A stretch of 64,000 bases of DNA from Amphiscolops sp. MND2022 (taxonomy: Eukaryota): positions 15,006,001 to 15,070,000 of the forward strand of contig OZ076409.1 in NCBI GenBank assembly GCA_964187785.1, given 5' to 3'. Shown here piece by piece: positions 1-33,931 of this stretch. The position numbers were made by a program, and so were the translations under genes. Numbering within the stretch: the first letter of the stretch is position 1; the number at the start of each line of letters is the position of its first letter. The notes beneath the pieces were generated by a model. That model was not told the DNA's origin. It saw only the letters and a list, made by a program, of their open reading frames with translations, and ran no database searches.

Positions 1-570
1 TGCGCTACCAAACACAAGGTGCTAATTAACACCAAGAAAATAACGCAACAGGATTGGCTAATGAGGTCACGTGACCAACATCACCAAACTCAACAGCAGG
101 CGCCACCACGCAGCCATTAACTTTTACTTTACTATAACGTGCAGTTACCAACTACATCATTTTTTTATACCAAACTTCATTTCAAAATCAATCTAAAAAC
201 CATCCTTCAACAACTCAATTAAACTTTTAAAAACTCCAATTTTTCTTTATGCTTAACACGAGATCTCAATTAGCGAGAAATAATTCAGTAGATATGAGCG
301 GAATGGATAGAGATAGTGATGCTGAGAGTGAAAGCAGTTTGCCCGAGATCCTCGCGAGAGATCAAACAAATGAGTTCGATAATGGCGACTTGTTAAAAAA
401 CCAGAACGATACTGAACGACATATACTATACCAGCGTTTCTCTGAAATAAACAAGCAGATCAACGAACTAACAAACCTAGTATCGGCCTTAACGAAGAAG
501 ATATTCTCTAGCAATAGAGAAAGGAACGATTTAAACAGTGTCTCAAATAGACACGAGACACGTTCCAACG
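1..570 (+). repeat. 5' LTR of element A (partial)
   Basis: Direct repeat of 13240-13810 and, from nt 51, of 14941-15460; ends immediately before the PBS. Confidence 0.9.
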
Positions 571-1620
571 TGGTGACAGGAGCTTCAACAAGCAATGTCC
601 AGACGAACCTACTGCGTCCATCATCATCACACTACACTCAGCCACCCGCACACTAAATTGACGACATAGTAACCAAAATCCAACACCTGAGAAATACCAT
701 GACGGATTCTGTACATCATCCGAAAATTCTCCAGACCCACGTTCCACTTTTCCGAGGGAACCGGGAGAGGCATAACCATACTTCCAGAGCCTGCTACGTG
801 ACGACGCCATCAAATGCTGGCAGTCACGAAAAAACCAACCAAAAAACTCTTGCCCAAGTTTTGCGTTACTTCAAAAATGAGCATGCCAGAGAAGACTTGA
901 AAAAAGTGACCAAATACAAGTTTGGCCAGATCCGCAATGACCCTTCAGCCGAGACGTTTAATGACTTTCTCAACAAATACAAGAAGGTGGCAAAACAAGC
1001 ATTCGGGACCAGATCAGGTGACATCACAGAGACCTTTTTGTTTGCAAAACTCCTCCCGGCCACATCAAGTGCCCAACTGTTAAATCAGATTAGCTCACCC
1101 CATCCACCAATTGCCACACCGCGGACTTCCAATTCCCAACCGCAACAAAACAGGGAAATCAAAAGGAAGTTTGATGGACAATGCCGTCATTGCGGCATAC
1201 ACGGGCACAAATGAGCAGAAAGTAGAAATAGACTTCGAGAAGAAAAGGAAAACAAATCCGCGAACCCAAACTCGCAAACCGCAACCCAGTCCAACCCAAC
1301 AAACGAACCAAAACCCAAAAACAACTCCAAATTGGTATGCCAAATTTGTCGAAAGGTGGGACATTCAGCCCGAGACTGTTATTACTGGAATACGGGTACG
1401 TCAGCATACCGAAGCGTCCTGTACCCTAAACAGTCAACGAAGGAAAATAAACAGATTCAAAGGGATTTCATACACACCAACAATAGGGTCTACAATACAA
1501 ACCAAACGAACTGTCCCACGCAGCACATGACGAAGCTGACAGTAATGAAAAAACCGAAAAACACGATGACGTAGAAGATCCAAAAAATTTCTGCTTAAAC
1601 CACGTCATCCTCCTCAATTG
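249..1620 (+). pseudogene. gag: gag (disrupted), starting inside the LTR, two CCHC zinc knuckles
   Basis: ORF pieces 249-656, 699-1214, 1332-1574; CRHCGIHGHK (degenerate) and CQICRKVGHSARDC; stops and frameshifts. Confidence 0.85.
571..583 (+). other. Primer-binding site TGGTGACAGGAGC
   Basis: Starts with TGG directly after the LTR end; same motif at 13811 and, on the minus strand, at 21498-21510; cognate tRNA not identified. Confidence 0.85.
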
Positions 1621-1816
1621 AACGAAAGTGCGCGCTAAAATCAACAACTAACCACTTCAAAACAAACTCGACTGAAGACTTCAAACAAACACGGGGTGGC
1701 AGTCCCGTGCCTCAACTTACACAAAGGAAACAACAAACTTTGTCATTACAAGACATTCGACTGACAACTACACCTTCCGACCGAAAGAATACAACTGACG
1801 ACCCGAAGTCAACAAT

Positions 1817-4800
1817 ATGGAATTGTTACCTCAGAACAATGACTCGGGTAACGAAACTAACGAAGCTAAACAACCCTCATTCCCAAAACCAAACCCACGG
1901 AAGAAAACCAATTACGAAAACCGCCCGTTGAGTGCTACCCTGCAACTCAACAGCGAAGACAGGATGTTATACGTACCACTCCAATTCCGAGAATACAAAA
2001 ATTTTGGTCTCCTCGACTTTGGTGCATTTCAAAGTGGATTATCAGAAGCAGAACTTCGTCGCATCCTAACAGTTTATCCAGCCGCCCTCCTCCAAGGACT
2101 CCCTGCCCCGGAGTTCAAAGTCCAAATCGCCAACGGCAACATCATGCCAGTGAGAAAACAAGTATTGCTACGTTTCTTCATTGGCGGAATAATCTTCGAA
2201 GAAACATTCATGGTTCTCCCGACAATAGGGAACATACTCATTGGAATGTCGTTCTTCAAGAAATACTCCTTTGCTTTAGACCTGGCCAACAACATCGTCA
2301 AATTCCCGGACACAACCCTTCAGCTACAATCAGTCAACGGGAAATTCAAAAACGAGTTGCTCGAATTGAAAACCACCCAATTGATCCAACCCAACCAATA
2401 GGTGTTCGTCCCAGTGGTGATTGAGCGTGATCTCGGTGACATCACAGGCACTGTCGAAGGATTACGCGCTTTTGAGAGACCATCACATCTGCTGGTATCT
2501 CCTGCTCTCAGCGACACCCGGGAAGATCGGACTCACGTCTAGATCTCAAACCCACTAGACTACCAAATTACCCTGAATGTGGGTACCGCAATAGCATCTC
2601 TCAAAATCAAGACACCGAAACAAACCAGCAAATTACAGCCGATGACCAACCACAAACTTAATTTGATTTCACGATACCCAGAAGATGCCGCAGCAGTCTT
2701 GAATCTAATTTTCTAGGATCTAGTTGCAAAAACGGACAGACCATGGTATCCTACACCTGAGACATGCGGTGATCCGTTGAAACTCAACAAGATCGAAAGA
2801 CGAATTCATCATCAAATCATCAAGTTCAGGGGGAGGAGAAAGTGGAACCGACAACGAGCGAAGAACAACGACAGGAATTTCTAACAAATTTCAAGTACGA
2901 ACAATCAATACTGAACCCTCACGACAAGCAGACAAATGCGGCTTTATTGGTCAAGTACCATGACATCTTAGCTAGACACAGGCTGGACGTAGAGATCAAC
3001 ATCGAGTATAAGATAAAGTTGACTCCCAAGCACGACCAACCATTAATGTTCATCGCTTGCCCACACCGACGAACTTAAAAGATGATTTACTAGTCGAATT
3101 GTCGTTGATCCAGGATTAAGGTATAATCACAACATTACCGTATAACAAATGCTCTTCACCCATCTTCGCTCAACGCAAACCAACTGGGAAGCTTAGAATC
3201 CTTGTCGACCTCGGAAGAAGCAACCATTTACTGAAAAACGATTATAACTAACACAACCACTCCGTGACAACGATGGTTAAGGCAGTACAACACATGGCTG
3301 GGAAACGATAATTTTGCAAATTGGACGGTTCATAAGCGTACCATTGCTTGCAGATGGCAGACGATTAATCAGTCCTATTACTTGCATTCAACTTTGGAAG
3401 TAGGACCTTCGCCTTCCTCAGAATACCCCAAAGCTTGAACCGGTCCCTATCAGCCTTGAACAGTACCGTTCGAGAGTACTTGGACCCCTTGGTCAAGGCG
3501 GACAAATGTGCCCAATGTGTTGATGATATCGGCATTGCTGCCAACAATATTGAGGCAGTCTTCATCAAAATTAGACAAGCCAGACTGAAGCTGTCAATGG
3601 AGAAGTGTGCGTTCAGTCATCCCGACATCGAATTCCTGGGAATAAGCATAACCACCAAAGGCATCGCGCCCATTGAGGAAAAAATTTACAAGTTCCTGAA
3701 CAACATCAAGTTGCCACCGTCTTTGAAGTCACTACAAGGGTATATTGGACTTGTCCAGTTTTACATCCAGTACATTCCGAAGTTAGCTGAGACACTGGTC
3801 CCTCTATACAAGTTGTTATTGAACGATGTCAAATATGACCTCACTCAAGTTCACAAGGACGCGATATTCAACATCAACAAGAACCTCGCAAACGCCGCGA
3901 AGACTTCCTTACGATTACAACTTCCCGACAAACAACTAGTACTAATGTGCGACGCCAGTGAGCATACAGCATACGCTCCAGTAGCTTTCGTAACGCAGAG
4001 ATTTACCGAAAGCGAAATGTCGCTCACGATGTATGCAAAAGAGTTCCTGGCCATGCACTTCGCGTTTGACGAACTCGCGCATTCCTTGTGGGGTGTGAAG
4101 AAGCCAACAATAGTCATGACGGACAACAAAGCCCTCGCAAGGTTCTTCCAATCGAAAAAGATACCACCCAAACTGTGGAACTACAGCAACCTAGCTCTCC
4201 AATTCGACATCGTCCTGGCCCATGAACCCGGAGTCGAAAACTCAGCGGCTGCATCAGTCCTCAGGACACGATCCACCTCAAATTTCACCATGAGATACCT
4301 GTGTTCAAATATTCCGACGAAGACAAGGTGCCTCTTGAATCAACATCACGAATTCTAACTTCACTCCTGGCGATGTTCCCTCACTGGTTGTCTTACGAAG
4401 ACGACGAGCAGTACCGTCGACGCATTGACGACATCAATTCAGAGGTGCAACTGTTTGTGACGCACTCTTACCCAACTCTCTTCTTCCCCCGAACCTACCA
4501 ACGGAACCAGATTCACATGGTAAATCAGGTATGCCCTTCGGGGGTTTCAGAAATTGTTAGAGCTCATAGCTTGAACAGTGAAGTTCAACGTATGATAAGA
4601 ATCGTTACTAAACAGGAAACCCCGCCCAGTCAAGTGAACTTTGCCAGTACGTTCTTTCAAAAACCCTACAAAAACCGCAAAAGACTTGAAGTTGTTAACA
4701 ACGTGTTGTATAGGCAGTTCTTTGACAACGTGGGGCACTTAGTTTACCAACAAATTGTAGTTCCTCCAGAAACTACTGAAGCCATAATCAGGACACTGCA

Positions 4801-6362
4801 CGGCGATCCTATGCAGGGACACCCTGGCGCTTCAAAAATGTTAGGTGAACTTAGAAAAAGCTGCTACTTTCCAAACTAGGCGGAAAAGGTACATGAGTTT
4901 GTGGGCAATTGTCAAGACAGTAAAAAAGTGAGAACTCTGACAACTAGCACCATAACACCAGCATTTGAACGATAATATGACCACTGTACCGGTCCTGATG
5001 ATGTCCTGGAAATTGACTAAGATGGTGATTTATCGCGATCTATTGGGTACTCATACATCCTGACTGCCTGTGACTGTTTCTCACGATATCTGTTTGCTGT
5101 TCCGATCCGGAAACCCGATACCAAATCTGTAGTCGAAGCACTGTTGGACATACTCCCAACACACGCATATGTACGAAAACACATCATTACCGTTAAAAGC
5201 TCTGCCTTTACCTCACAAGTAATTGAAGAACTGATGAGTAAAGATGGGATAAAGTTATCCCATGCGACAGTCAAACACGCTCAGACAATTGGGATGATCG
5301 AGCGTTCGCATCAAAAATTGCAACAAATCCTAAGAATAAATGTTTCTGCAGACCGGCCCAGTGGGACCGATACGTCAACCTCGCCGTTATGGCTCACAAC
5401 ACGACGCACCATCAAACTCTGAAATGTTCCCTGACCGAAGTCTTTCATGGCCGTGTACCATAAATGCACTTGATCTCAAATTTGTCAACCCTCTAAGCTC
5501 GCCGAGAAACGCCAGTGACACACAGTCGCTTGTGGACAATCTGAACGCTAAACTTCAGGAGACTCATAAATACATAATCCGAGCATTCCACAATTATAAA
5601 GCGTAATACGGTCGAAAAGCACAAGCATCGCCACTGCAAGTTAACGACTCTGCATTCTTACTAAACCCTAAAATCAGATCCCAATCAGAAACGTTGCCAT
5701 TCAACTCCTTCAAGTGGGAAGGCCCCCTACAAGGTAGAGAAAAATTTGTCACACTCTGACTACATTGTTCAAACGAAGAAACCTTCACGACTCAGTGTGA
5801 ACATGGAATGCGGCTCCACCCATCTGTACCACACGACCCAATTGGAGACATAACAAACGACACGAATCGTATTTACAGTGACCCTGATGCTTTTGACGAT
5901 TAAACATTCTTTAATGATAACCTACCTGAACTCATACAACCAACACCAGTTGAAACTACAGCTACAGGTGAAATTGAGGTTAATGAAACCGAAACTGTTG
6001 ACACCGGACACGGAATGACCTACTATGAACGTAAACAAGTTCGTGAGGTTTCACCCCTACCGAATTCTCTACCGGAAACTATTCAAACAGACAACACATC
6101 ACACACTGAATGCGACAATCCATCTAATCGAGTGGCAGCACCTCCACCTACTGAGCCCGAACGAAATGTCACGCTGAATGACGATGCGGCATTGACCACA
6201 TCATCAACTGAAACGCCCGCACCAATAACACATAACAATACCACATGCAACAGCCTCAGAGAAGCATCCATCCCCAAAACATATGAAAATTTTCTGGTAC
6301 ATGAACTGCAAGCAAAACCTGCTCTCCTGAAAATCATGCAACGAAAATCTGCTGGTCAATAG
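1817..6362 (+). pseudogene. pol: pol (protease, RT, RNase H, integrase), multiply disrupted
   Basis: LLDFGA (FDTGA in the second copy); QCVDDIGI at the RT YxDD position; LVLMCDASE RNase H; LHGDPMQGHPG integrase Zn finger; HAQTIGMIERSH core; KWEGP motif. Confidence 0.92.
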
Positions 6363-7387
6363 AAGGTCAAAATTACATACAATCAGTTCGACATGACATA
6401 CACAACTACATGTATCTAACAAACAAACATTCAATTTAACTACCAAGGTTAGAAATCAATGATCCTGAATGAAATTGTAGCAATGACGACTGATATTCAC
6501 TGTCATACACACTCGGAATTACGGAGTCAGAATAGCTGAGGGGAAGGTAATTACATGTAATGCTGCCACTACCACTAAATCACTGCACCAGGACATCACA
6601 AGTTTATGCAATCAACATGGAAGTCATCCACTAATTTATGCAATTCATGTTAGCATGTAAACAAAAGCGACAAAAGGGATTGCTCTGCAATTCCGAAAGT
6701 AACGGGTACAAATCAAACGAAAAACGACAGTAAAATGCAATCGTCATCTCCATTCGACCTACAGGTTGTGATCTCTTGCTCTTACTAGCATGACCTAGGC
6801 TCTACCTCAAGCCGGAATGAGCAAGTTTAAGAAAAGCAAACCAAAACATGCAAAGGATCTTCAACACCTTCCTTTGTTCCAGAGCATCCATTCCCACCTA
6901 AAAAAACACAATAAAAGGCGACACACATCAGGTGTGATGACGTTTAAGGACACACATCAACGATGATGAAGTCACAAAACACATTCCCCATCAAATCCCC
7001 CAGATCGCCACAAAACTATCTTCAACTGAAATAAAACCAAGCCAAGAAAAACTGAATTAAACTACGAGGCCTCAAAGAAAAAAACGAGTGTAGCATGTGA
7101 ACTATTTAAGAGAAATGCAAAGTCCATTGGAATGAACTTCAAGGAAATACTTTTCATAACACAATGTGCAATACACTTAATAACATGTAACACCAGTCCA
7201 GACCAGCGTAAATTTCACGGAGACACAGGTGCTAACTCAAAAAAACATCAAAATTTACCATACAATGGTCAAAGCAACATGAAAAAACAACTCGCATCAT
7301 AAAAACAACTGATATCAAAATATACAAAACAAAACACAGAGGTGAACAACTCGACCAATTTACAGTTATGTTCCACAACACTCGACA

Positions 7388-10300
7388 CTACTCTGCTTCG
7401 TCGGACGACACTATGGCGTAGAGTGTAGCACGTCGTTTCCTCACCGACACACACTCCTCGTCATCTCCGGCCTCACCAGCGGTGGCTGAAGAAGATAACT
7501 GCAAACTTTTGCTTGCTTTTGGTTTGCCGCCCGTCCGACGCCCTTTTAAACCCGATGTCCCTATCGAGGTGCTAGCAATCAATGTCTTTACTCGCGTTGA
7601 AACCAATGGAGTAGTCTGCCTCGATAAAGAAGTGGATTGAGCTCCCGGATCACAAGTCACATCCGCTAGTCGACGAGGAACTTTTCCAGTCTGCTCTGCA
7701 GTAGACCGACTTCGCACAGGTCTTTTCAACGCGTGACTAGCTCACCTTACAGTACTTAAGGCTTCCACCAGGCCCAATTGAGCCAAAATAATTGGGCGAT
7801 AATCGTTAACAGCAGGTACAGGCGTAGATGTAATTGAACTGTCATACACTGAAAGACAACGCGTAAGAGCATCCCACAGACCAGACTTCAGCCGTTGCTC
7901 CCATGGCATACCACGCTCACTATTATTCAAACGTTACACCTGGATATTCGTTGTTCTGCACAATCGTTTGAGGCCCTGTAAGTTGCATCTCGTCTGACCA
8001 GCAAAAGACATCCGAAGCCAACTCCGCACCAAGTGCAGACTAGACATCAGTGTGTCGCGCGGAACCGCCAATGTAGAATCATCGGCAAAATCCACAACGT
8101 ACTGACCCGTAACTACCAGGCCAAACACAACTTCCACTACATGACGTAACTCTTTGCAACGCGCCCAGAGAGGGTACGCCACCCACATATCCACGACATC
8201 CTCAATGACTGGCATGTTCCCATGAATCGACCACTTCTGTTCAAAATACGAAGCAACTTCACAGTATTGAAGAAGCACTGCATTGCCATCATCACTGTTG
8301 ATCAGGCAGTGAGACGTCAGCATCACACAGGTCTCCACTAAGGCATCCACGCTGCGGTCGTCGGATCCGCAGTGAATCAACACTGGGTCAAATGGTGTTA
8401 GACTAAGATGCTTTACCCCAATTCCACGCCATGCGGCGACAAGCTTGGTACATAGTGCACCGAACATCTTTTGCACAGACCGGTAGAGATAAGAGAGTTG
8501 AGGTCTAACATCGAATCTGAAGTACTGTTCAAACAAAACAATGTACTCGTCCTGGTCAATCACACAGTGATCATGTTCTACATGGGACAGCAAAGCTCCT
8601 ACTTCGATCTCGGCGGGACTCGCAGAAGCCGGGTTCACGTGTTTCATCAAATGGCGTAGATACTGGGACAGTTCACGCTCGACCACCAAGCCAGCGTCTC
8701 TACCGTCAGCGAATAAACGAGAACAGTTGTCAGCCACTGTAACAACAAAACAGGAAGTCACTTAATCAGCAAAACGTAACACTTACGCCAGCACCATCTA
8801 ACGTAGTAAAAATCTACCGTCCCCAGCTAATCAAGTAGGGAAAAAAGAAACCCCTATCTTTTTTGCCCCTAAATAGGAACCCGTACAATGACTACTGCAC
8901 ATACGCCCATTAATACCATACCAAACAAAGACTCAAAATGACACGCAGTGCTGCGAAACGTGGTCTCATCAGTGCATCACGAAAGACCTGCCTTCCATCG
9001 TCGTGATCAGTTTAAGCTCAGATGGTGTGCTAGAACGATGCGTACCAAAAAACACAGTAAGAACACTCCACTGTTCGACAATCTCGGCGCAAAACGCAGC
9101 CAAGGCTGGTACATCGATCCCGCCAGTGCGCACGTACTGGAACACAAAAGACACGAATCGAATAACGCAACGCCTCCCAGAGGAAACAAAAAAAATCACT
9201 TACCACCTACTATCACCTCGAGATTCACAGTGTACACAGGCACCAACGTAGATATAAACACGCCTATTGTCCACATATCTGAAATAACTTACACGATGAA
9301 GTAGCGACATGCGATCCAGTGAAGAATCGTCCACGACAGACAGCAAACGAAATTGGAAGTACTCAAGCACGCCAAACGGTTCCAGACCTCCGAACTCCGC
9401 TAGTAGCAAGTCTTTCACAAGCTGCAGCATGAACCGCTGAGTAAAGGCTCCAGAAATCAACGGTTTCGCTGGCGACAAGCCTGCCGCCAAAGCAGGACCC
9501 AACTGTATTATCCCTTCAATGACATACGTTGTCACAGCCGCAGCATGTTCCAGACCCAGCAACAATGGCACAACCACTTCGACGACCTTCCTCTCTCATC
9601 CGGACTCACTAGTGACGACAGCTAACACGATGGACTTTATCGAATGTTCATCGATCAGGTGGCACTCGCACATCCAGTACCGTTCTCGTCTGCGCACACT
9701 GATACTAACAATCGCACTCGCACCCATTCCTTTGTCGAGTTCCAAGAGAGGCCGCACAAAACCAAGCTCTGCAAAACACATACAAATCCCTTAGAATCTA
9801 ATCCAAACACGACACACACTTGCAATCAGAACCTCGGAACCAGTCTCTAAACGAAAAATAATGAGCACGAGAAGCTTAAAGTAACAGAATAAACTGCATT
9901 TTACGCAAAGCAACACCGCACATGAAATACAACAAGCAAACGGAAAAAAAGAGAGAAGGAGTTACCTGACAACGAGCGTAGTTGAGGTCGCGGCGTTCTA
10001 CCTTCAGTTCGGAAGCCATGTTAGCCCTCCACGTGTCCACTCCTCTCATCACATTGCCGAACGAACTCAAACTCACAAAATTGGACACAATTCTGCAAAT
10101 CTGCCAAACCACAAGCATTCCACGGTCTCCGCTTCCAAAATCGGGCGCTTCTCAGCTGCTGCTTCTACCTCCTCTACAGCAATCAGTTCCTCAATAGACA
10201 GGTTTAATGACGATTCCAGAAACACAGGAGGTTCGGACATCCTTGCTAGACAAATACGTCTATATTCCTCAGCGGAAACTGGACGACACGATCGTCCAGC

Positions 10301-11505
10301 AAAAGCTTCTGCACAATAATCCGAAACTTTTGCTCCAGGCGAGTATGTTCTACGCCCTTCCAGTGGACCCATAACGACAATAGCCTCCGCCCACCAATGC
10401 TAAGGTCCACAAGACACAATAGAAAGCGTGCACACCCGTCGATTACGCGTTTGTGCTGAGGGAATCCAATGAAGGTTCCAACCACCCCGGACACAAAGTA
10501 CGACGGCTTTAGCGTCTTTAATTTACGGCGACAACCTGAAACACACTACATGCATAAGCACAAACATCAAAACAAGCACTCATGAGTTCACCCACTAAAC
10601 TCCAAAATAAATCTTTAGGACCTATACAGTAGTAATTCTTTCTTAAAACCCCTCCCATGATCTCATGATTTTCTTACTAGGTTTTGCAGTTTTGTGCTCT
10701 CAAGTGCCACTGACGTCGAAGACTCCAGCTGACCGAACGCAGAAGGGACTGAGGCACAGCCTCCTTCTGATCCTTCTGCAGGCTGCGAGGATGTAGTCAT
10801 CATCGTTAATTGTACGACAGACGATAATGGTAACCTTCCTTCTTGACTCATACAACCAGATCCAGCCTCAGATACAGACGACGCCTGTGTCGTCACAACT
10901 TCCCCCATGGCAACTTTTATTTTGTCGATGAATTCTTCAACAAGCATGGCTCCGACGGTGCCCACGTGACCAAAACGAGTTTCAATTGTCGCCTTCACCA
11001 GATTCGACATTTGCTTGATGAGTTCATTGACAACCACATCAAGGTCAGACACGGTCACGAGCCGCGCACCCGATATAACTGTGAAATACGTGATAGTTTG
11101 ATTACCATACCCCCCACCCACATGCTACTACAACCTTGACTCCTGAATACCAACAGCGGCCACAACTGGTATTGTCAACTACACGATAAATAACGAAGAA
11201 GATAACAGGCAAAGAAGTCTGGAATCATCATTGACCTGAATGTTTTGAAGGAAAACTGACAATCGACTCCTCATTTCTTCAGTACTCAGCGACGAGGACT
11301 TGGGGAAATCACCAGTTTGACTTAGCAACCCTCGCAGTAATGATACGATCACTTCACACGCAGGCTCTCTGTGAACGCCAAATAACCTGCGATACCCATT
11401 AGCAGAACTACAGATACTTTGAGCAAATGTTTTTTCCCGGGATGTAAAAGCTACATATGGGATTGATAGGAATGTGACCGACCGCAACCAATGTGAAACG
11501 CTCAA
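7388..11505 (-). pseudogene. Antisense multi-exon accessory gene of element A: Zn-finger plus hAT-transposase-like protein (decayed)
   Basis: Minus-strand ORF chain from 11179-11505 down to 7388-7729; acceptors at 10536, 9769, 9137, 8737 and donors at 10677, 9965, 9292; colinear similarity to the 55649-58523 product. Confidence 0.75.
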
Positions 11506-11571
11506 TGACTAACGCAAAAAAGGAGAGACGACGTCTCCCCAAAAATATACAAAAAAAATTAAAAAAAAACG

Positions 11572-12090
11572 ATGCAATGTTTAAACCAACCTGTGTATGC
11601 AGTTCAAAGAAGTATCCAAGTAAAGTACTCACGGAATTCTTCTGTTGAAACAATCTACGCCAAAGAGTTCAACGCGTCAGAACTGGCTGCTGAGAAACGT
11701 GATGCCAAACGGCAGCAAATGGAGCCCACTCCTCCTGCTAACAACTCTTCTTCACCCTCCTGAGACATATCAATGTCGTCATGAGACAACCTACACTGAC
11801 CCTCTTCCACTGGAAAACCTACTACGGACAACACAGTGGTGACGAAGTCATCGTCAGAATGATTCACGCCAGACATAATCGATCACGATAATCTGAAAAC
11901 AACGGACAATAACAGGATTGCAAAATGATACAGTTGCGATTTACCGAGCATCAATGCTTCTTTTGTTGATCATCTGGACTGATCATCCTCATTGTCTACG
12001 ACACAGAAGCCCCCTCGCCCCTATCATAGAAAAACTCTTTACTGTTGAACGCCAATTCTTTAAATTACCTTTGCCTAAAATCTCCTAGAT
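11572..12090 (+). pseudogene. Possible decayed Ser/acidic sense-strand ORF upstream of the PPT
   Basis: ORF 11572-11763 continues through several stops; same relative position as ORF 53349-54104 of element F; no convincing sequence similarity. Confidence 0.3.
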
Positions 12091-12576
12091 CCACCTGATC
12101 AAGTAGCTTCCTCTCGGTACGCAGCGTTTGCAAAAACAGAAGTCAACAACAATCACCACTTCAGGCGAACAATTCAAGCAGAAATTCAATTGTATCTGTC
12201 AACGAGTGTTTTCAGCGTTCACACGCTACTTATTATTCACACCCAACTTGGAATTATTAAAACAGCAACCATCCGCTGCCACATATCAGTTGTTACGAAA
12301 TCTTTCACCTTCTCTAATTCTACTTAAACCAACAATTAAGCGCACGATTGGATGACGTGGCTATTGACGTCACGCCGAATTCAACTATACTAACTCACGA
12401 CTTTACTCGCAAACTAAACGAACGCCTTGTCGGGTTACACTTGGAAATTAATACATGATTCAGAAGTAACTCGTTCACGACTGTCAACAACTATAAAGTT
12501 GACCTACCTAACGCTGCCGACATTCCAACTCTCTAACTTCCGCTGCTCGCTCCGACGCACCTTCCTCTTTTCTTTC

Positions 12577-12587
12577 AAGAGGGGGAG
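12577..12587 (+). other. Polypurine tract of element A
   Basis: AAGAGGGGGAG directly before TG of the 3' LTR. Confidence 0.85.
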
Positions 12588-13810
12588 TGTTATGCAATAC
12601 GCATGATTGCTATCAATCTAAACTGTTACCCACACAGCGCTACCAGGCAGAAAGTATGATTGAAAACAACGGAACAAACGAAATTCACAGTCACAATATC
12701 ACAAGGCCAAAACGGAAAAACGAAGGAAACCGGATCATAAAATAATGCAATTGATTACACAGCATTGAGAAATAAACTCAAACATTCTAAATGAATAAGT
12801 TATGACGTGACTGTAATACATGCATCCTTTAAACATTCACACAAAATATTCCTTTTCCATCAAATCCATTTCCGTTGAATGATGTAGTTTTGTCGAATAT
12901 TTACCTTTAAACATTTTCGCAGAATAATCATCTCTTTTTTCCATCAAGTACATTCGCGGCGTTTGATGTAGTTGTGTTGAATACGTCAAACTAAGTGCCA
13001 AAAGTGTTTGTAATACTATAGTACGCAAAATTGCTTAGTCCATAATTTGTCATTTACCCAATGTTAGTGACGCATCATCATCATCTAGTCATATGTATAA
13101 GCCTCAACGTTTGAGATGTAACATCATCATACTCTAGTACAAGTGCAATTATTTCACATACGGTTTTCATACGTTTTATTCAATGATTCATGTAACCATA
13201 GTAACGTTCCATCACTGAACTCATACCAAAAGACGCATTTGCGCTGCCAAACACAAGGTGCTAATTAACACCAAGAAAATAACGCAACGGGATTGGCTAA
13301 TGAGGTCACGTGGCCAACATCACCAAACTCAACAGCAGGTGCCACCGCGCAGCCATTAACTTTTGCTTTACTCTAACGTGCAGTTACCAACTACATTGTT
13401 TTTTTAAACCAACCTTCATTTCAATATCAATCTAAAAACCATCCTCCAACAACTCAATTAAACTTTCAAAAACTCCAATTTTTCCTTTGTGTTTAACACG
13501 AGATCTCAATTAGCGAGAAATATTTCAGTAGATATGAGCGGAATGGATAGACATAGTGACACTGAGAGTGAAAGCATTTTGCCCGAGATCCTTGCGAGAG
13601 ATCAAACAAATGAGTTCGACAATGGCGACTTGTTAAATTACCAGAACGACACTGAACGACACATACTAAACCTTCGTTTCTCTGGAATGAACAAGCAGAT
13701 CAACCAACTAACAAACCTAGTATCGGCCTTAACAGAGAAGATATTCTCTAGCAATAGAGAAAGGAACGATTTAAACAGTGTCTCATATGGACACGAGACA
13801 CGTTCCGACG
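12588..13810 (+). repeat. Complete ~1.22-kb LTR, shared with the downstream tandem unit
   Basis: Begins TGTTATGC after the PPT; 3' part matches 1-570; followed by a second PBS. Confidence 0.9.
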
Positions 13811-15460
13811 TGGTGACAGGAGCTTCAACAAGCAATGCCCAGACGAAACCACTGCGTCCATCAACATCACACTACACTCAGCCGCCCGCACACCAAATTG
13901 ACGACATAGTAACCAAATCCATCACCTGAGAGATACCGTGACGGATTCCGTACATCATCCGAGAATTCTCCATACCTCCATAGACTTCGAGAAGAAAAGC
14001 TAAACATCTTTGAACCCAAACTCGCAAACCGCAGCCCAGTCCAACCTAACAAACGAACCAAAACCCAAAAACAACTCCAAATTGGTATGCCAAATTTGTC
14101 GAAAGGTGGGACATTCAGCCCGAGATTGTTACTACTGGAATACGGGTACGTCAGCACACCGAAGCATCCTGTACCCTAAACAGTCAACGAAGGAAAATAA
14201 ACAGATTCGAAGGGATTTCATACACACCAACAATAGTGTCTACAATACAAACCAAACGAACTGTCCCACGCAGCACATGACGAAGCTGACAGTAATGAAA
14301 AAACCGAAAAACACGATGACGTAGAAGATCCAAAAAATTTTTGCTTAAACCACGTCATCCTCCTCAATTAAACGAAAGTGCGCGCTAAAATCAACAACTA
14401 ACCACTTCAAAACAAACTCGACTGAAGTCTTCAAACCACACGGGGTGGCAGTCCGTCCCGTGCCTCAACTTACACAAAGGAAACAACAAACTTTGTCATT
14501 ACAAGACATTCGACTGACAACTACACCTTCCGACCGAAAGAATACAACTGACGACCCGAAGTCAACAATTTGGACTTGTTACCTCAGAACAATGACTCGG
14601 GTAACGAAACTAACGAAGCTAAACAACCCTCATTCCAAAAACCAAACCCACAAGACAGGATGTTATACGTACCACTCCATTTCCGAGAATACGAAAATTT
14701 TGGTCTTCGACACTGGTGCAATTCAAAGTGCATTATCAGAAGCAGAACTTCGTCGCATCTTAACAGCTTATCCAGCCGTCTCCTCCAAGGACTCCCTGCC
14801 CCGGAGTTCAAAGTCCAAATCGCCAACGGCAACATCATGCCAGTGAGAAAACAAGTGTTGCTACGTTTCTTCCTTGGCGGAAAAATCTTCGAGGAAACAT
14901 TCATGGTTCTCCCGACAATGGGGAACATACTCATTGGAATGGATTGGCTGATGAGGTCAGGTGACAAACACCACCAAACTCAACAGCAGGTGCCTCTGCG
15001 CAGCCAATAAGTTTTGCTTTACTATAACGTGTAGTTACCAATTAGATCATTTTTCTATATCAACCTTCATTTCAATACCAATCTAAAAACTATCCTTCAA
15101 CAACTCAATTAAACTTGAACAAACTCCAATTTTTCATTATGATTAACACGAAATCTCAATTAGCGAGAAATAATTCAGTAGATATGTGCGGAATGGAGAG
15201 ACATAGTGACGCTGAGAGTGAAAGCAGTTTGCCCGAGATCCTTGCGAGGAATCAAATAAATCTGTTCAATAATGGCGACTTGTTAAATTACTGGAACGAC
15301 ACTGAACGACATATAGTAAACCAGCGTTTCTCTGAAAGGAACAAGCAGATCAACGAACTGACAAACCTAGTATTGGCCTCAACAGAGAAGATATCCTCTA
15401 GCGTTAGAGAAGGAAACGATTTAAAAACTGTCTTTTATAGACACGAGACACGTTCCGACA
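13811..15460 (+). mobile_element. Second, heavily deleted tandem unit of element A (PBS, gag/protease remnants, 5'-truncated LTR 14941-15460)
   Basis: Matches 571-~730 and ~1229-2247 with deletions, then jumps into LTR sequence ending CCGACA. Confidence 0.88.
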
Positions 15461-18894: not shown

Positions 18895-21800
18895 TGTGAT
18901 AATCCTCTTTTGAAGCTATTATTCCGTCTTCTAAGTTCAGTTCGTTTTGGTACAATGATTTGGCTGGATGTTTCAAGTCTTTCATTTTTGAAGCTCTGAG
19001 AGGATTATCGTCGTTTTCTGATTCTGGATTTTTGTTTTTAGATGCGCGAACTCCTATAGACCTCTCATTTTTGGATCCTGAAGGTCTTTTCCAATATCAC
19101 TTGTCTCCTGTTTCTTCTTTTCCCATCTTTGCTCAACAGAAAATATGTTCTGGCTTTTTGGGGAAGAATTTGAATTGTCTTGAAGTATTCCAAATACCAA
19201 AAGATGTTCCGAAGAAACAGTGCAAATGTTGAAAGGAACTGCTTTTACAGTTTAGTTAGAGTGATGATTATAGCAATTGATCACGATGAGGGTCAAAATT
19301 GGAATGAATATCTATGCTAAAGTTATTTTACTTCAGAAAATTGGGAGCATGACACTTCTTGTTAGAGGAATCACGCTAGCCTGGGAAGCAAAAAGAGAAT
19401 AGCATCATCATTACGTCAGGGTATTTATATCGCATTCAAAACTGATGAATAGGTCCAATAAAACCCTGGAAAATTTCATTAGAGACTGTCAAGCGCGTAC
19501 TCGGAAATATAATTGAAATGTATAACGTCACAGCACATTTTGAATGGTTATCATGCTAAAAACGCATACTGACGCATACTCGTCTTTACTCGATCCGTAT
19601 ACTGCCGCATACTCTTCATCTGTAATCCGCATACTGCCGCATACTCTTCATCTGTAATCGGCAAACTGCCGCATACTCGTCTTTACTCAATCCGCATACT
19701 GCCGCATACTCTTCATCTGTAATCCACATACTGCCGCATACTTTTCATCTGTAATCCGCATACTGCCGCATACTCGTCTTTACTCGATCCGCATACTGCC
19801 GTATACTCGTCACACCTCGATCCGCATAGTAACGTATAGTCGTCACATCTCGATCCGCACAGTGACGTATTATTTGTTCAAGTTCCACATATCAGCATAA
19901 ATTTAGCTCTCACAAACTGTGAACAAGACTTATGAGTCAGATCAGTACCTGGTGATGAATGAAATTTACGCTTCTAAAACTTCAAATGTATAACAATGTA
20001 AAACAGAACTCAGTTTGAAATAAGAACAACAAATATGAAATTACATGACTAAGTTATGATGTTAGGGGGATTAGTTTATAGTCCTTGTTGAACAAGTAAA
20101 GTTGATAATCTGCTAAAAACCGGGTTTGGCAGTTTCTAGTTTCCTTACAAATTGCCCCATGGCTCCAACACAACAATGGGGTTGTGACAGTCCCGTACTT
20201 TCAAAGGAAAATAGAGCTGCAACAAACCCGTCGACTGAGGATCTGAACCTTCCATTCATGTCCCAGACTGTCTCCCCGTCGTAGGTAGTTGAGATGGGAC
20301 GTTTGCCACAGTGCTTCCATTCTTTTACAAGGGTCCCGCACTTGAAAAGTACGTTATTAGTTCGATTCCTTTTGATTCTTTATTGCAGTATAGTATTGAA
20401 GTAAATTATTTTTATTATGTGGAAACTTTTCAATTCTGAGGAAATCCAGCTGAGCTTGAAAGTCAAGAAGAAATTTATCGTCGTGGGGTTACAAATCACC
20501 GACGAAGACATCACTTGCGGAGTTCGGATGGGTTTCGTTTGGGTCATTTCCAATTTTGACAATTTTCTGTCATAAATTTTCCATTTGTCCGGTTTTTTGA
20601 AGTGTTTGGTTTTTTGACTAGTCATTGATTTTAATGCTAAGCTGGCCAGGCTAGCATTGGAGATGTCCTCATTTGATACAGACGACATCCTGGTTTCGTT
20701 TGGAGTATTTTCATACTCCCGAATTTAATTTGAAGCATTTTTCAACGCTTCGGGATTCTTGTGGAAGCACTTTCCAATACTTGCGGTATGAAGTAATTTC
20801 AGGCTTCCGAAGTTCATTTGACATTTCTGTTTTTGCACAAGAAATGAACTAAGTTTGTTTCAGTTGAACTCGGTTGAGGTATCGTCAGGACGTTCTCCCA
20901 CTAGAGTTTTTGCTCTTTTTACAAACTGTATTAAAAAGTCCACATTTTATTGAGTCCGACATATTGTTTCATCTAATCCGTCAAAACGAGGCGAGGAAAG
21001 TCAGAGAAGTTGAATTTGTGTCAGAGTTGTTTTTCAAGTTGTAGAAGTTTGAGAAAGTTGGGTTGGAATTGGGCGTAAATCCTATTTGTGACGTGTTTTT
21101 TATGGGTTCTTGTTGGGATGGTTAAATTTGTGGTTTTCTGTGTTTTTTTGTTTGTTTATTTGTTGTTTTTTGGGTTTCTTTTTGGGTTTCTGAAGTAACT
21201 AAGTCATTATCATGAGTTTGTTGGGTAATTTAATCGACATATTTTGTGTTCGGTTCAGTGGGTTGATCCACTGGGCTCCCCACTACTGTTTTTTGAAATG
21301 ATGAGGGTGGGAGGGTGGTTGTTTTTGCGTGAAACAGTAGTGGATACGAGTTCTTTTTTTCCAGTTTTTCCATTGCTATAGCAATTTGATTGACTGGATC
21401 GAGTGGTCTTGTTGTCGAATTTGACAAATTTTGGTTTACGTGGGATCCTATTGTGTCGTTTGGGTTTTGGGAACTTTGTCTATGGAGTTGTCGGTTGGCT
21501 CCTGTCACCATGTGATAATCCTCTTTTGAAGCTATTATTCCGTCTTCTAAGTTCAGTTCGTTTTGGTACAATGATTTGGCTGGATGTTTCAAGTCTTTCA
21601 TTTTTGAAGCTCTGAGAGGATTATCGTCGTTTTCTGATTCTGGATTTTTGTTTTTAGATGCGCGAACTCCTATAGACCTCTCATTTTTGGATCCTGAAGG
21701 TCTTTTCCAATATCACTTGTCTCCTGTTTCTTCTTTTCCCATCTTTGCTCAACAGAAAATATGTTCTGGCTTTTTGGGGAAGAATTTGAATTGTCTTGAA

Positions 21801-22805
21801 GTATTCCAAATACCAAAAGATATTCCGAAGAAACAGTGCAAATGTTGAAAGGAACTGCTTTTACAGTTTAGTTAGAGTGATGATTATAGCAATTGATCAC
21901 GATGAGGGTCAAAATTGGAATGAATATCTATGCTAAAGTTATTTTACTTCAGAAAATTGGGAGCATGACACTTCTTTTTAGAGGAATCACGCTAGCCTGG
22001 GAAGCAAAATTAGAATAGCATCATCATTACGTCAGGGTATTTATATCGCATTCGAAACTGATGAATAGGTCCAATAAAACCCTGGAAAATTTCATTAGAG
22101 ACTGTCAAGCGCGTACTCGGAAAGATAATTGAAATGTATAACGTCACAGCACATTTTGAATGGTTATCATGCTAAAAACGCATACTGACGCATACTCGTC
22201 TTTACTCGATCCGTATACTGCCGCATACTCTTCATCTGTAATCCGCATACTGCCGCATACTCTTCATCTGTAATCGGCAAACTGCCGCATACTCGTCTTT
22301 ACTCAATCCGCATACTGCCGCATACTCTTCATCTGTAATCCACATACTGCCGCATACTTTTCATCTGTAATCCGCATACTGCCGCATACTCGTCTTTACT
22401 CGATCCGCATACTGCCGTATAGTCGTCACACCTCGATCCGCATAGTAACGTATAGTCGTCACATCTCGATCCGCACAGTGACGTATTATTTGTTCAAGTT
22501 CCACATATCAGCATAAATTTAGCTCTCACAAACTGTGAACAAGAATTATGAGTCAGATCAGTACCTGGTGATGAATGAAATTTACGCTTCTAAAACTTCA
22601 AATGTATAACAATGTAAAACAGAACTCAGTTTGAAATAAGAACAACAAATATGAAATTACATGACTAAGTTATGATGTTAGGGGGATTAGTTTATAGTCC
22701 TTGTTGAACAAGTAAAGTTGATAATCTGCTAAAAACCGGGTTTGGCAGTTTCTAGTTTCCTTACAAATTGCCCCATGGCTCCAACACAACAGTGGGGTTG
22801 TGACA
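18895..22805 (-). mobile_element. Non-autonomous, internally deleted LTR element B: two 1295-bp LTRs (18895-20189, 21511-22805) and a 1.3-kb interior
   Basis: TG...CA ends; 5-bp TSD CTATT (18890-18894, 22806-22810); PBS at 21498-21510; PPT-like GAAAGTACGGGAC next to 20189; about ten LTR differences by eye. Confidence 0.93.
19562..19870. repeat. ~32-bp minisatellite in LTR B (also 22178-22490)
   Basis: Units such as CCGCATACTGCCGCATACTCTTCATCTGTAAT alternating with a ...CGTCTTTACTCGAT variant. Confidence 0.9.
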
Positions 22806-23310
22806 CTATTGTTAACAAAAAATTCACTGTATCAAGGGCACAGCTCACGAACACTTTGAAAAATCTCGCTAATTTAGTTTAAAGTTCGATAATTGAAGTT
22901 CACATTTTTTTTGAAATCGTGGCTTTGATTTCAAAATCATTCTCGAAAAACCATTTTCAGTTTTTAAAACCGCTTAAATTCCCACTGGCTCTGTTTATTT
23001 ACTCAGACTGAAAACAAGCAATATATCGTCATAGTAACGTACGTAACGTCATAGTAGGTCATGTGACAAAAAAATAAACATCAATTCGGCAGAAAAATTT
23101 GAACCGCCACATGATTTTGCCAACTTTGCAAAACCTGCCAACTTTTCCAAATACGATTAAAAACAGTTGAGTTGTCGGGACCACCAGTGTGAGGCAAGTA
23201 AGTTTGCGAATAATAAGTTTTCGATGTAATAACTTGGTAATCCAGTTCCAAAGCCTAAAATGCACGAGTTTAAAAACCGGAAATATACAATTTCTGAAGA
23301 GGGGCAAAAT

Positions 23311-25698: not shown

Positions 25699-27412
25699 TG
25701 TCATGAGCGTTTTCAGCAGAATCGTCGTAAAGACGATTACGAGTTGGCTCACTTCTAGAACTACTCCTGATTTTCTGACCAGGATGAACCTCAGGATGTC
25801 GTTCCGGTCTCCCCTTTGGGATGTTCCACCCCTTTTGGGTTAATGATTCTGATCAGGTCTTGAGAACATTCTGTATTTGTGGCAAAACTTCACTACTTAT
25901 TGAATCATTAATAGCCCTTTGGATATGAGCACTGACATTATTCATCATCTCATCCATTTCTCTCGAAATCCTCAAGTTAAGTTCACCTGATAGCCTATTA
26001 AATTCAGCACTAGAGTCAGTACCAGCAGAGTAGTGGCCACTTTCGGCACTATTATTTGATCTATTTTCCTTAGAATTAAAGTGAAGATTTCCTTCATTGA
26101 TATTGGGGCTGTTTGACCTTCTACTAGAAACATCATGTTCATTTTCTTCCCTTTCTAAGTGACTGCCTCCCAACATGATATCTAAGTCTTCTATGTCAGA
26201 CGACATTTCTGCTCCTCTAGATTTTCTAGCTTTCTTCTCTTTTCTAGTAGTAGGCATCAAGAAGTCCTAATATTTTATTGGAAAATCAGGTGTAAGTATT
26301 TTCAAAGCGTGTGAACGTCAGTAAGTTAAACAAGATTGTCCACTTCCCAGGAGAAACAGAGGTATTTATACTCCTGAGAGAATGAAACACATTTATGCAG
26401 GCCTACTTTATCAAAACAACATTCCAAACCATTTCCGTTAAACAGGATATTACATAGTTTTAGTAGGAAAATTCCATAAAGGGCAGGTGACTAGCAACAC
26501 TGACATTTAGTAACTGCACTTGGGTATTTAGTTCAAACCACCCAGGAAATTGACCTGTTCCGGCTTGAACATATTTCAAAACAGTTAAATGCATTGGTTG
26601 TTAACATTTACAAACATCAAAGCGATAGCTAAAACCTAAACGTCGGAAATATGCAACAGCAACTCCTAGTACGTGCTTGAACGTGAGACTAGATTAGCAT
26701 CCGGTCAAACACATTGACTTACATGATCTCTTGTTAGCGCTGAATAGGCCTGAACCGGCCATTGTACATGAGATGAATAGTATTATCCAGCTTTAATCGG
26801 TCCAAGTACTGGTTTTCATAAGTAGCAGCAACAATTAAGACAAATAACATGGTCTTCATCCAATAATTTTAATCACAGTAACTGACATTCTAAGACAGTT
26901 TTATGCACTCTCCAAGAAAATACACAGCACTACTAATTAAATATTGCAGTCTACTCTATGAAAGCTACGTAGGCCGGAACCGGCCATTTAACTAGCGTCC
27001 ATGATTCTAATGGCCAAATTAAGTCAATCGGCAGTAACCGGCCAAATAATGTAGTGCTCAGAAGGTGTATGAAGAATACTGCACTGTGATTGGTTAGCTA
27101 TAGGCCAACAAGTTACGACGCCGATAACGGACGTTTTAGCACTCGAACTCGTTTCCTTTGCATCGTACAGTAATCTAATTACTTCTTGCATTTCAATTTT
27201 ACATCACACATAAATACCAAATTAGCACATTGAGCAACAGTTAACAGACTAAAATAAAACAAACGTATCAAAATATCTAAACAAAGTAGGCATTAATTTT
27301 AAGAGACAGTTTTAGTTTCAATATTAGAAAGTGGGAAGTGTCCCCAACGCAATATCTTGTCCGTTTGCAGTTGTTGTGATCGTCGTGCCGTCACAGGCGG
27401 CAGCCTGCGACA
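25699..27412 (-). mobile_element. Solo LTR, family D, with Gag-N-like ORF MPTTRKEKK...
   Basis: TGTCA...CGACA ends; TSD CGGAC on both sides; minus-strand TATA near 26365; ORF runs to the LTR end through one TGA. Confidence 0.9.
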
Positions 27413-27747
27413 CGGACCTTCTAGTGAAACTATGTTTTTCATTTTTGGGCTTCTTCAAGATTTATGTTAAGCTGACCAAGGGTCAGTCAGTTGAAACTCT
27501 CCATCACCCAAAATTCTCTAACAGGAAAGCTTGTCCCCATCACGGTAGTTTTGGAGTCTGGGCAATGTTCGGTATAGGGGTATAGAGGGTAATTTACTAA
27601 ATACACTTGAACGTTTCAGAAGTCGTTATTCGACTACGAGAGGCTCGTTTGCCATATTGACTTAGTTTTGGCGAATTTGATTAGACATGTGGCCACCGTG
27701 TGGGTTGATAGAGGTGTTGATAAAGTAAGTCATGTGATAAAAGAATA

Positions 27748-30970: not shown

Positions 30971-33931
30971 CAGGGGTGCTGAAAAATTGATTGTACTTCC
31001 TATTAACTGCAATTAATTGCATACAATTATTTGATTGGGAATTTGAAACCAATTAGTGAATTGATTTTTGGGGCAAGCAATTAATTGTTTCAAAAACATG
31101 TAGAAGGTATCAATCGAACCGCCTTTATTACATGTGACCTTAACCTACACGTCAAGTGAACGTGACCAAACTGGTGGTCTATAGCTCAATTTTACCGCCC
31201 AATCAACACACACGTGTGCGTCGTGCAGAATGTACGAATCACCGACTGCAAACATACAAATCGTGGCTAGGCGACCGGAATTTTTGCGCGCTTTAGGGTA
31301 TTGATAATTTCGCAATGAGGTCTTCCCATGCTGAGTTTCCTTGAGAACCTGTACAGATCTGTGAGAGAATTTTGCTTGAAGATCTGTAAAGATCGTGCCA
31401 CTGCTACGTAAGGACAACTGCAAGGATCTTTACAGATTTTCGAAGATTTTCAGGAAATTTTTTCCGGACTGTCATGAGCGTTTTCAGCAGAATCGTCGTA
31501 AAGACGATTACGAGTTGGCTCACTTCTAGAACTACTCCTGATTTTCTGACCAGGATGAACCTCAGGATGTCGTTCCGGTCTCCCCTTTGGGATGTTCCAC
31601 CCCTTTTGGGTTAATGATTCTGATCAGGTCTTGAGAACATTCTGTATTTGTGGCAAAACTTCACTACTTATTGAATCATTAATAGCCCTTTGGACATGAG
31701 CACTGACATTATTCATCATCTCATCCATTTCTCTCGAAATCCTCAAGTTAAGTTCACCTGATAGCCTATTAAATTCAGCACTAGCGTCAGTACCAGCAGA
31801 GTAGTGGCCACATTCGGCACTATTATTTGATCTATTTTCCCTAGAATTAGGGTGAAGATTTCCTTCATTGATATTGGGGCTGTTTGACCTTCTACTAGAA
31901 ACATCATGTTCATTTTCTTCCCTTTCTAAGTGACTGCCTCCCAACATGATATCTAAGTCTTCTATGTCAGACGACATTTCTGCTCCTCTAGATTTTCTAG
32001 CTTTCTTCTCTTTTCTAGTAGTAGGCATCAAGAAGTCCTGATTGTAATATTTTTTTGGAAAATCAGGTGTAAGTATTTTCAAAGCGTGTGAACGTCAGTA
32101 AGTTAAACAAGATTGTCCACTTCCCAGGAGAAACAGAGGTATTTATACTCCTGAGAGAATGACACACATTTCTGCAGGCCTACTTTATCAAAACAACATT
32201 CCAAACCATTTCCGTTAAACAGGATATTACATAGATTTAGTAGGAAAATTCCATAAAGGGCAGGTGACTAGCAACACTGACATTTAGTAACTGCACTTGG
32301 GTATTTAGTTCAAACCACCCAGGAATTTGACCTGTTCCGGCTTGAACATATTTCAAAACAGTTAAATGCATTGGTTGTAAACATTTACAAACATCAAAGC
32401 GATAGCTAAAACCTAAACGTCGGAAATATGCAACAGCAACTCCTAATACGTGCTTGAACGTGAGACTAGATTAGCATCCGGTCAAACAAATTGACTTACA
32501 TGATCTCTTGTTAGCGCTGAATAAGCCTGAACCGGCCATTTTACATCAGATGAATAGTATTATCCAGCTTTAATCGGTCCAAGTATTGGTTTTCATAAGT
32601 AGCAGCAACAATTAAGACAAATAACATGGTCTTCATCCAATAATTTTAATCACAGTACCTGACATTCTAAGACAGTTTTAAGCACTCTCCAAGAAAATAC
32701 ACAGCACTACTAATTAAATAATGCAGTCTACTCTATGAACGCTACGTAGGCCGAAACCGGCCATTTAACTAGCGTCCATGATTCTCATGTCCAAATTAAG
32801 TCAATCGGCAGTAACCGGTCAAATAATGTAGTGCTCAGAAGGTATATGAATAATACTGCACTGTGATTGGTTAGCTATAGGCCAACAAGTTACGACGCCG
32901 ATAACGGACGTTTTCGCACTCGAACTCGTTTCCTTTGCATCGTACAGCGACACGGACCTTCTAGTGAAACTATGTTTTTCATTTTTGGGCTTCTTCAAGA
33001 TTTATGTTAAGCTGACCAAGGGTCAGTCAGTTGAAACTCTCCATCACCCAAAATTCTCTAACAGGAAAGCTTGTCCCCATCACGGTAGTTTTGGAGTCTG
33101 GGCAATGTTCGGTATAGGGGTATAGAGGGTAATTTACTAAATACACTTGAACGTTTCAGAAGTCGTTATTCGACTACGAGAGGCTCGTTTGCCATATTGA
33201 CTTAGTTTTGGCGAATTTGATTAGACATGTGGCCACCGTGTGGGTTGATAGAGGTGTTGATAAAGTGCTGTGGTTGTAATATTTCGGACACATGGTTTGC
33301 TGGAGTAGTTTTAGTAATTGCTGGAAACTTGGAATACTTTGTAGTAATTTATTGGTCATTTTCGTATGGTTAAAGTTTGACAAATCCTGGAATATGTCAG
33401 GATCTGTACAGATTCGCACAGAAACTTTTTTGAAAGTTCATTTAAGAGGCGTGTTTATCTTCTAAAGCACTTTTTATTCAACTAATTTCAATTTCAAAAG
33501 TTTTTATGACTAGTTAATTTTCGACAAATTATGGAATATCTGTCAGGATCTGTTTAGATTCGCAGGGAGTGCTCAACATGTGGTTCCTGTTAGCTAAGTA
33601 TAGCATATAATATACCGTTGAAAAGCTCTTTTCAAGCACATTACGACTAAAGTACTCCAGTGAAAATTCGAGTACTTAGCAGGCTTTATTTTCAGTGATT
33701 ACACGAAACGGCTGACACCAGCAAATCTTGGGATGCAACTTTTTCTGAAACTGAATACAAAATTCAGGGGCGAAGAACTTGTGAGCGAAGTGTGCGTTAG
33801 TGGTAAACATTAGTGCAATTAATTGCAATTGTTGCAATTAATTGATTGCTTCTGATAAGAAATTGCAATTAATTAATTGTTTCCTGAATAATTGATTTTT
33901 TTGCCCATCAATTAATTTTTGAGCACTCCTG
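30971..33931. mobile_element. Non-autonomous hAT-type element carrying solo LTR D (left part duplicated at 25195-27726)
   Basis: TIR CAGGGGTGCTGAAAAA / TTTTTGAGCACTCCTG; 8-bp TSD ATCTCACC / ATCTCATC; GCAATTAATTGC subterminal motifs. Confidence 0.82.
31470..32952 (-). mobile_element. Duplicated copy of solo LTR D with ~240-bp deletion
   Basis: Same TSD CGGAC and flanks as 25699-27412. Confidence 0.9.

Follow-up and report, generated by a model that had tools for sequence, protein, structure and literature searches.

Evidence for a Ty3/gypsy gag reading frame that begins deep inside the LTR

The gag reading frame of a group of Ty3/gypsy retrotransposons very probably starts 87-198 codons inside the long terminal repeat (LTR), is under selection at the protein level there, and runs on into the capsid region, with translation likely beginning at an ATG within the LTR. 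The window analyzed, a 64-kb stretch of repeat-rich eukaryotic DNA from Amphiscolops sp. MND2022 with LTR elements, a LINE-type reverse transcriptase (RT) and a bZIP gene, contains five families of such elements (A to E), for which ten LTR copies were delimited by self-alignment and a target-site search (Table 1). In all five families an open reading frame (ORF) occupies the last 232-657 nt of the LTR, in such a phase that the LTR end falls after the first base of a codon; judged from sequence, the LTR-borne start of gag is real and well supported.

Table 1. Positions of the LTR copies and related features in the 64-kb window
Feature	Position	Strand	Remarks
A1, 5' LTR, 3' part only	1..570	+	cut by window edge; 93% match to 13240-13810; primer-binding site (PBS) adjoins
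A1 TATA-like box	133..138	+	about 117 nt before ATG, no ATG between; putative function
A1 LTR-encoded gag leader	249..570	+	107 codons + 1 base, open
A PBS TGGTGACAGGAG	571..582	+	directly 3' of LTR, read as (V)VTG
A gag remainder	583..1591	+	capsid, two CCHC knuckles
A pol, broken	1799..6362	+	protease, RT, RNase H, integrase (Pfam and tblastn)
A long 3' region	6363..12576		antisense ORFs 7934-8761 and 10663-11124; no Pfam match
A polypurine tract (PPT)	12577..12587	+
A2 LTR	12588..13810	+	about 1.22 kb; 5' end placed from PPT + TG
Second A copy	13811..14940	+	PBS and internally deleted gag-protease
A3 LTR, 5'-truncated	14941..15460	+	open leader ORF 15139-15460
B 3' LTR	18895..20189	-	99.3% identical to B 5' LTR
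B PBS	21510-21499	-	read as MVTG
B 5' LTR	21511..22805	-	1295 nt; remnant leader 21742-21511 ending TAT CAC A
D1 solo LTR	25699..27412	-	leader 26257-25699, 186 codons + 1 base, one stop
D2 solo LTR	31470..32952	-	leader 32028-31470
C1 solo LTR	44386..45999	-	open leader 44785-44386, 133 codons + 1 base
E solo LTR	47811..49378	+	leader 48722-49378, one frameshift near 48960
C2 solo LTR	51263..52470	-	open leader 51659-51263, 132 codons + 1 base

Elements and class assignment

The five window families are Ty3/gypsy by structure and by pol order. The LTRs of B, C1, C2, D and E have TGT...ACA ends, and 5-bp target-site duplications (AATAG for B, CAGCT for C1, CATTG for C2, GTCCG for D1/D2 and TCTAC for E) set the 3' ends of the LTRs of families B to E. 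A 5-bp duplication was looked for in family A and none was found; there the LTR end is set by the point where the three copies stop matching, and by the PBS. A PBS follows the 5' LTR at 571, 13811 and 21510, and a PPT is found at 12577 and in a related metagenome locus (L001). In the A element the order of pol domains is protease, RT, RNase H and integrase (Pfam RVT_1/RT_RNaseH at 3369-4355 and Integrase_H2C2/rve at 4226-5419; protease by tblastn to L001), and membership in Ty1/copia (Pseudoviridae) was rejected because the integrase does not precede the RT. Gag matches zf-CCHC above the Pfam cut-off, Retrotrans_gag and Ty3_capsid below it, and it has Atlas hits at 0.94. The broken RT of the A element matches foamy virus, Ty3 and caulimovirus chains in the PDB, matches that give no clade placement. 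No env family, the mark of an errantivirus, was found in the ORFs scanned from the window or from L001. The primer for the PBS TGGTGACAGGAG is likely tRNA-Leu: tRNA 3' ends in CTGTCACCA are typed as Leu UAG/AAG in the table of PMC13524379. No tRNA gene, and hence no gene for the primer, was found in the window.

The copies differ in preservation. The A gag is decayed, with stops at 654 and 1212 and a change of frame near 1500. The A2 LTR is both the 3' LTR of the first element and the 5' LTR of a tandem second copy, an arrangement of elements with one LTR in common (PPT before it, PBS after it) that is seen in the window at 12577-13822 and in L001 at 7940-9755. The whole B element (22805..18895, duplication AATAG) is young and non-autonomous, with a 1.3-kb interior between its LTRs, whose upstream parts contain 33-nt and 97-nt tandem arrays (19564-19903 and 22180-22519). 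The solo LTRs C1, C2, D1, D2 and E are 1.2-1.7 kb long; D1 and D2 represent one insertion within a local duplication, since they have the same target site and flanks. This segmental duplication (23077-27726 versus 29163-33266, 93-100%) includes the D solo LTR, and its second copy contains an 18-nt minisatellite (30489-30748).

Antisense ORFs extend over several kb between pol and the 3' LTR (window 55600-58523, plus strand; 7934-8761 and 10663-11124, minus strand; L001 2530-5762, minus strand), one of them with a zinc-finger-like CxxC...H...H motif. They are evidently conserved, as four frames of L001 are 28-33% identical to window 55648-58133; the antisense ORFs of the A element match neither of these sets, and no Pfam family was found among the antisense ORFs of the window or L001.

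The open frame and its junction with gag

The frame of gag, followed from the start codon to the LTR end, contains no stop in A1, A2, A3, C1 and C2, one stop in D1, D2 and both B LTRs, and 12 in the frameshifted E, compared with 3-34 stops in the other two frames of the leader region. Base shuffles contain 5-16 stops on average (P ≤ 0.001 for A, C and D, 0.02 for B and 0.2 for E), and control LTR stretches of equal length upstream have at least 3 stops in every frame (5 of 5). The coding share of the LTR is 22-42%. The TATA-like box precedes the start codon by 113-159 nt in A, C, D and E, and by about 300 nt in B. The sequence-only reading of this DNA, which had described a TATA-like motif followed by an ORF that reaches the last LTR base in a single phase, is thus confirmed in five families, although the E frame reaches the LTR end in phase only after its frameshift. 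AATAAA or ATTAAA precedes the ATG by 22-62 nt in all three A copies, D1 and L001, and is absent in C1, C2, D2, E and B; placement of the ORF in U5 rather than in R is plausible from these motifs.

At the junction, the terminal ACA of the LTR gives a NAC codon (D, N, H or Y) and the first base, A, of the codon that follows; together with this A, the PBS TGGTGACAGG forms ATG GTG ACA GG, read as MVTG. The resulting ATG has the context GACATGG, with a purine at -3 and G at +4. Every junction named in the sequence-only reading is present, and all are in one phase. For family A, that reading had the frame pass through TCC GAC A into VVTGA: the frame does meet the PBS in phase and VVTG(A) is read there, but TCC GAC A ends only the A3 copy, where one flank codon and then a stop follow, while the LTRs of the interior-bearing copies end in AAC G or GAC G, and VVTG is a decayed MVTG. 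The A1 leader is 55% identical over 95% of the query to open relatives of 504-509 aa, and the leader ORF of A2 (13489-13810) has GTG as its start codon.

Selection on the LTR reading frame

The strongest comparison is that of C1 and C2, whose ORFs are 78% identical in nucleotides and 70% in protein with the frame unbroken. Over 132 codons, pN is 0.14 and pS 0.72 (Fisher p = 1.7e-24), giving a dN/dS of about 0.06 that is only approximate because pS is near saturation; the differences fall 20/19/66 by codon position, so that third positions account for 66 of 105. The 510 nt upstream of the ORF are 82% identical, with many gaps of 1-2 nt, and comparison of this value with the pS of 0.72 indicates that synonymous sites of the C ORF are freer than the non-coding LTR. 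By these counts the two C solo LTRs show purifying selection on the LTR ORF.

Among the three A copies dN/dS is 0.68-1.38 (not significant), and D1 and D2 differ by 6 non-synonymous and 0 synonymous changes, a pattern that we read as neutral decay after insertion and do not count as support. The D and E ORFs are related to each other, and the dN/dS support consists of the one C1/C2 pair, near synonymous saturation, and one saturated D/E comparison. Selection on the LTR ORF is borne out by C1/C2 and not by the A copies or D1/D2. The youngest element of the window, B, has a broken and shortened leader (77 codons starting MGK, with a stop at codon 10); in P0455, an open relative whose leader has 189 residues, its match is confined to residues 122-189. 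The D and E leaders are broken as well.

Open relatives and a metagenome locus

Open gag relatives with a leader of 87-198 aa before a conserved junction (D, N or H followed by MVTG) were found for all five families, including P0455 for B and P0584-P0594 for E. The family A query, its gag with X at the two stops, matched 99 proteins, of which 62 contain MVTG with an upstream frame (at least 90 aa long in 54 of these), 4 begin, as called, at the junction Met, and the remaining 33 have no exact MVTG. The C and D queries consisted of the LTR part only, compared with longer proteins; reading continues through MVTG in 87 of the 120 matches listed for C (of 126) and 86 of the 120 listed for D (of 305), many of which extend to a complete Gag of 480-575 aa. 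Among the matches listed, the residue before the junction M is D, N or H in 61 of 62 (A), 85 of 87 (C) and 86 of 86 (D), or 232 of 235 in total, as an LTR ending in NAC-A requires. The full-length relatives that were looked up come from ENA, and their clusters have as many as 380 members; such database matches are open frames by construction and give no share of intact copies.

The C and D matches without a junction (44 among those listed, 43 of them scorable) depart from the family at the same residue, and the residue after the departure point can be encoded by an A-initial codon in 40 of 43, against a background of 43% (p = 4e-12), so that the LTR end can be located, in this phase, from protein alone. 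Such matches appear to come from solo or 3' LTRs whose frame enters the flanking sequence. The regular expression used for junction scoring missed the junction or picked a wrong position in a few matches; P0288 was of the latter kind and was entered among the misses, and P0316 has no score. In all 21 called ORFs that extend to the codon preceding the leader ATG, this codon specifies K, N or T (each A-initial), and most open relatives have an A at -3 of the leader ATG. A profile search returned 252 representatives at 1e-30 or better, with further leader types among the 150 listed, and MVTG is invariant in 16 of 16 full-length Gags chosen.

Two loci were found in metagenome contigs, of which L002 is too short to reach the junction, and no relatives were found in viral contigs. 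L001 has a PPT, a 1.79-kb LTR, a TATA box and an ATG at 9356 followed by 129 open codons, the junction CAC A followed by TGGTGACAGGAG, and then an intact gag in a continuous frame, so that splicing across the junction need not be assumed. This intact locus, the dN/dS result and the open full-length relatives of all five families together support the proposal that the LTR, its att site and the PBS are coding. A tree of the capsid region (30 rows; P0550 and P0458 dropped, their anchor motif not found) has two deep branches (100/100 support), both with leaders of 87-198 aa, and the LTR leader is therefore likely ancestral to the group.

Some matches join an LTR leader to other sequence. P0263 has a family C leader joined exactly at the LTR end to the frame of a fusion glycoprotein (Monjiviricetes PF24664, E = 7e-17); it looks like an insertion into another element, and suggests env-bearing elements in the same source. 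P0249, P0250 and P0413 have LTR leaders in frame with 200-440 aa of unrelated sequence and are candidate LTR-started chimeric ORFs.

Predicted structure of the leader

The leader is predicted to consist of a basic tip, an acidic or disordered stretch and one long helix. AlphaFold, given a 16-row alignment of Gags, returned one confident helix at leader residues 51-87 (pLDDT about 92 at 61-80), with low confidence at residues 1-51 and 89-139, followed by the capsid helices. A heptad signal above shuffles, found in 8 of 8 leaders of the A branch (matched by 0-8 of 200 shuffles) and in 2 of 9 leaders of the C/D/B branch (7 of 9 without), predicts a coiled coil in the A-branch leader; the homodimer prediction for the A leader, made without an alignment, scored 0.04. 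The first 20 residues contain 4-8 K/R in leaders of the C, D, B and L001 types, and fewer in the A branch. Apart from this short basic tip, no homology was detectable among leaders of the A, B, C, D/E and L001 types (hhalign probability under 20%), and the leader matched no Pfam family and no Atlas cluster (best 0.77, for the C leader). For the capsid fold, the best Foldseek rows are dArc1, Arc, PNMA2, PEG10 and HIV CA (best E = 0.005, with nothing at 0.001 or better), a weak likeness to Ty3 and Arc/dArc-type Gag in addition to the CCHC knuckles. A coiled coil at the N-terminus is a feature of both Arc and foamy virus Gag.

Proposed mechanism and alternative explanations

Full-length RNA likely starts just after the TATA box of the LTR, which would leave a 5' untranslated region of about 90-170 nt, and the LTR ATG would be the likely translation start of a Gag with an extra N-terminal domain, most likely a matrix-like assembly or targeting domain. 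Reverse transcription copies the whole region from the RNA 5' end to the PBS into both LTRs, and the ORF copy in 3' and solo LTRs is thus a passenger; selection would act on the translated 5' copy of an active element, while inserted copies would undergo neutral decay. The strong-stop DNA of the minus strand would have a length of about 400-750 nt, most of it coding. Pol is probably expressed by a -1 frameshift at the end of gag, with slippery A/T runs at 1583 and at L001 10973 as candidate sites. The layout may have originated either by a shift of the primer site to a position within gag, which would have drawn the first part of gag into the LTR, or by extension of gag upstream from the junction ATG.

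Three other explanations were weighed against translation from the LTR ATG. Leaky scanning might produce two Gag isoforms, from the LTR ATG and the junction ATG, with the short MVTG form as the main capsid protein. The invariance of the junction ATG, its purine at -3 and G at +4, and the weak -3 base of some window leaders (A1 and D) speak for this; but the LTR end and the PBS force that ATG whether it is used or not, and the A at -3 of most leader ATGs among the open relatives argues against scanning past them. Two isoforms are thus a possible if doubtful addition, compatible with the LTR-start explanation and not exclusive of it. The LTR ORF could alternatively serve mainly to make a separate short protein from 3' and solo LTRs, accessory or controlling copy number, with fusion to gag secondary. 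Although the frame remains open in C1, C2 and A3, which are solo or 3' copies, and dozens of called ORFs read from the LTR into unrelated sequence, a frame that has no stop of its own and acquires a random tail, that keeps its phase with gag in every family, that evolves neutrally in inserted A copies and that is broken in the D, E and B copies makes such a function quite improbable.

An open frame that is a by-product of base composition or of U5 RNA structure, with translation from MVTG only, comes close to being excluded. Purine-rich sequence can be poor in stops, but shuffles that keep the composition give the 5-16 stops noted above, and the C1/C2 changes, 66 of 105 at third positions with pS 0.72, exceed the divergence of the upstream non-coding LTR (82% identical); third positions more diverged than the upstream LTR are the opposite of constraint at the RNA level.

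Other features of the window

An integrase region forms a tandem repeat at 59010-64000 (minus strand), its units of about 2.2 kb being 94-96% identical, and a LINE-type RT element (40277-43963, plus strand) contains a 1008-nt tandem duplication (99.8% identical). A bZIP gene (39272-39676 and 37951-38463, minus strand), which we take to resemble XBP1, has a second ORF downstream that could be the C-terminus of its spliced form.

Comparison with known systems

MMTV sag, HIV nef and foamy virus bel/bet also encode protein inside the LTR, but in U3 and as separate genes from the 3' LTR copy, whereas the ORF here lies downstream of the promoter and forms the front of gag. In Ty1, about 14 GAG codons precede the PBS. 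The Ty1 PBS lies inside the GAG ORF at RNA nt 94-104 in the published numbering (PMC4974528), from which it follows that Ty1 gag starts in the LTR with a short stretch there, as the sequence-only reading had noted; at most about 30 codons would fit before this PBS, 5' untranslated region included, compared with 87-198 codons and a predicted helical domain here. The LTR start of gag and a coding PBS are thus common to both, but Ty1 belongs to another superfamily, and the elements described here have the RT-RNase H-integrase order and a likely tRNA-Leu primer. At the sequence level, the window elements have the Ty1 layout enlarged about tenfold, within a Ty3/gypsy lineage. In Ty3 itself the 5' part of the PBS adjoins the 5' untranslated region rather than lying deep in gag, according to the same source (PMC4974528).

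The layout is probably less restricted to one lineage than had been supposed. Chary and Hayashi (2026; PMC13524379) list bee and wasp Ty3/gypsy errantiviruses with an HSV/gB-type env, in a table that places the GAG start at coordinate 3000. In parts 19-20 of Supplementary file 1, the 5' LTR spans this coordinate in 12 of 23 insect gB-env rows with LTR coordinates (ends at 3447-3670, all typed tRNA-Leu) and in 0 of 35 insect F-env rows, a count that leaves out two copepod rows, the anchor being unclear for non-insects. These coordinates, taken by themselves, imply that gag of the bee and wasp gB-env elements starts 450-670 nt inside the LTR, and the layout is perhaps common to an insect clade too. 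Passage searches of the main text of PMC13524379 found no remark on an overlap of LTR and GAG, and its table has no acoel rows. The bee and wasp elements carry env; the window copies have antisense ORFs, and an env match was not found in them.

Full-text searches of the literature, in a collection with few subscription papers and without Repbase and GyDB, found no account of a gypsy LTR that contains a long gag start, though mentions for single elements may exist. The available portions of the papers on Tor (PMC4402516) and Sinbad (PMC554778) describe no such layout, and those of an acoel genome paper (PMC6451197) give repeat percentages only.

Implications

LTRs are usually treated as non-coding control DNA, and gag annotation usually starts 3' of the PBS; in these elements both the integrase end and the primer site would be part of the Gag coding sequence. 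The annotation of gag changes for this lineage, since it would otherwise miss between one fifth and one third of the protein, and dating and classification by LTR divergence between subfamilies are affected as well. With synonymous sites nearly saturated, the elements are a natural experiment on the length, and the freedom from constraint, that a strong-stop/U5 region can attain. It is rather unlikely, though conceivable, that they represent a widespread and overlooked Ty3/gypsy class with a Gag domain in U5, whose solo LTRs would be expressed as cassettes of promoter and N-terminal domain that fuse the coiled coil to downstream sequence or limit copy number through truncated Gag. The LTR-start explanation predicts that solo LTRs would be gene starts, and not only promoters.
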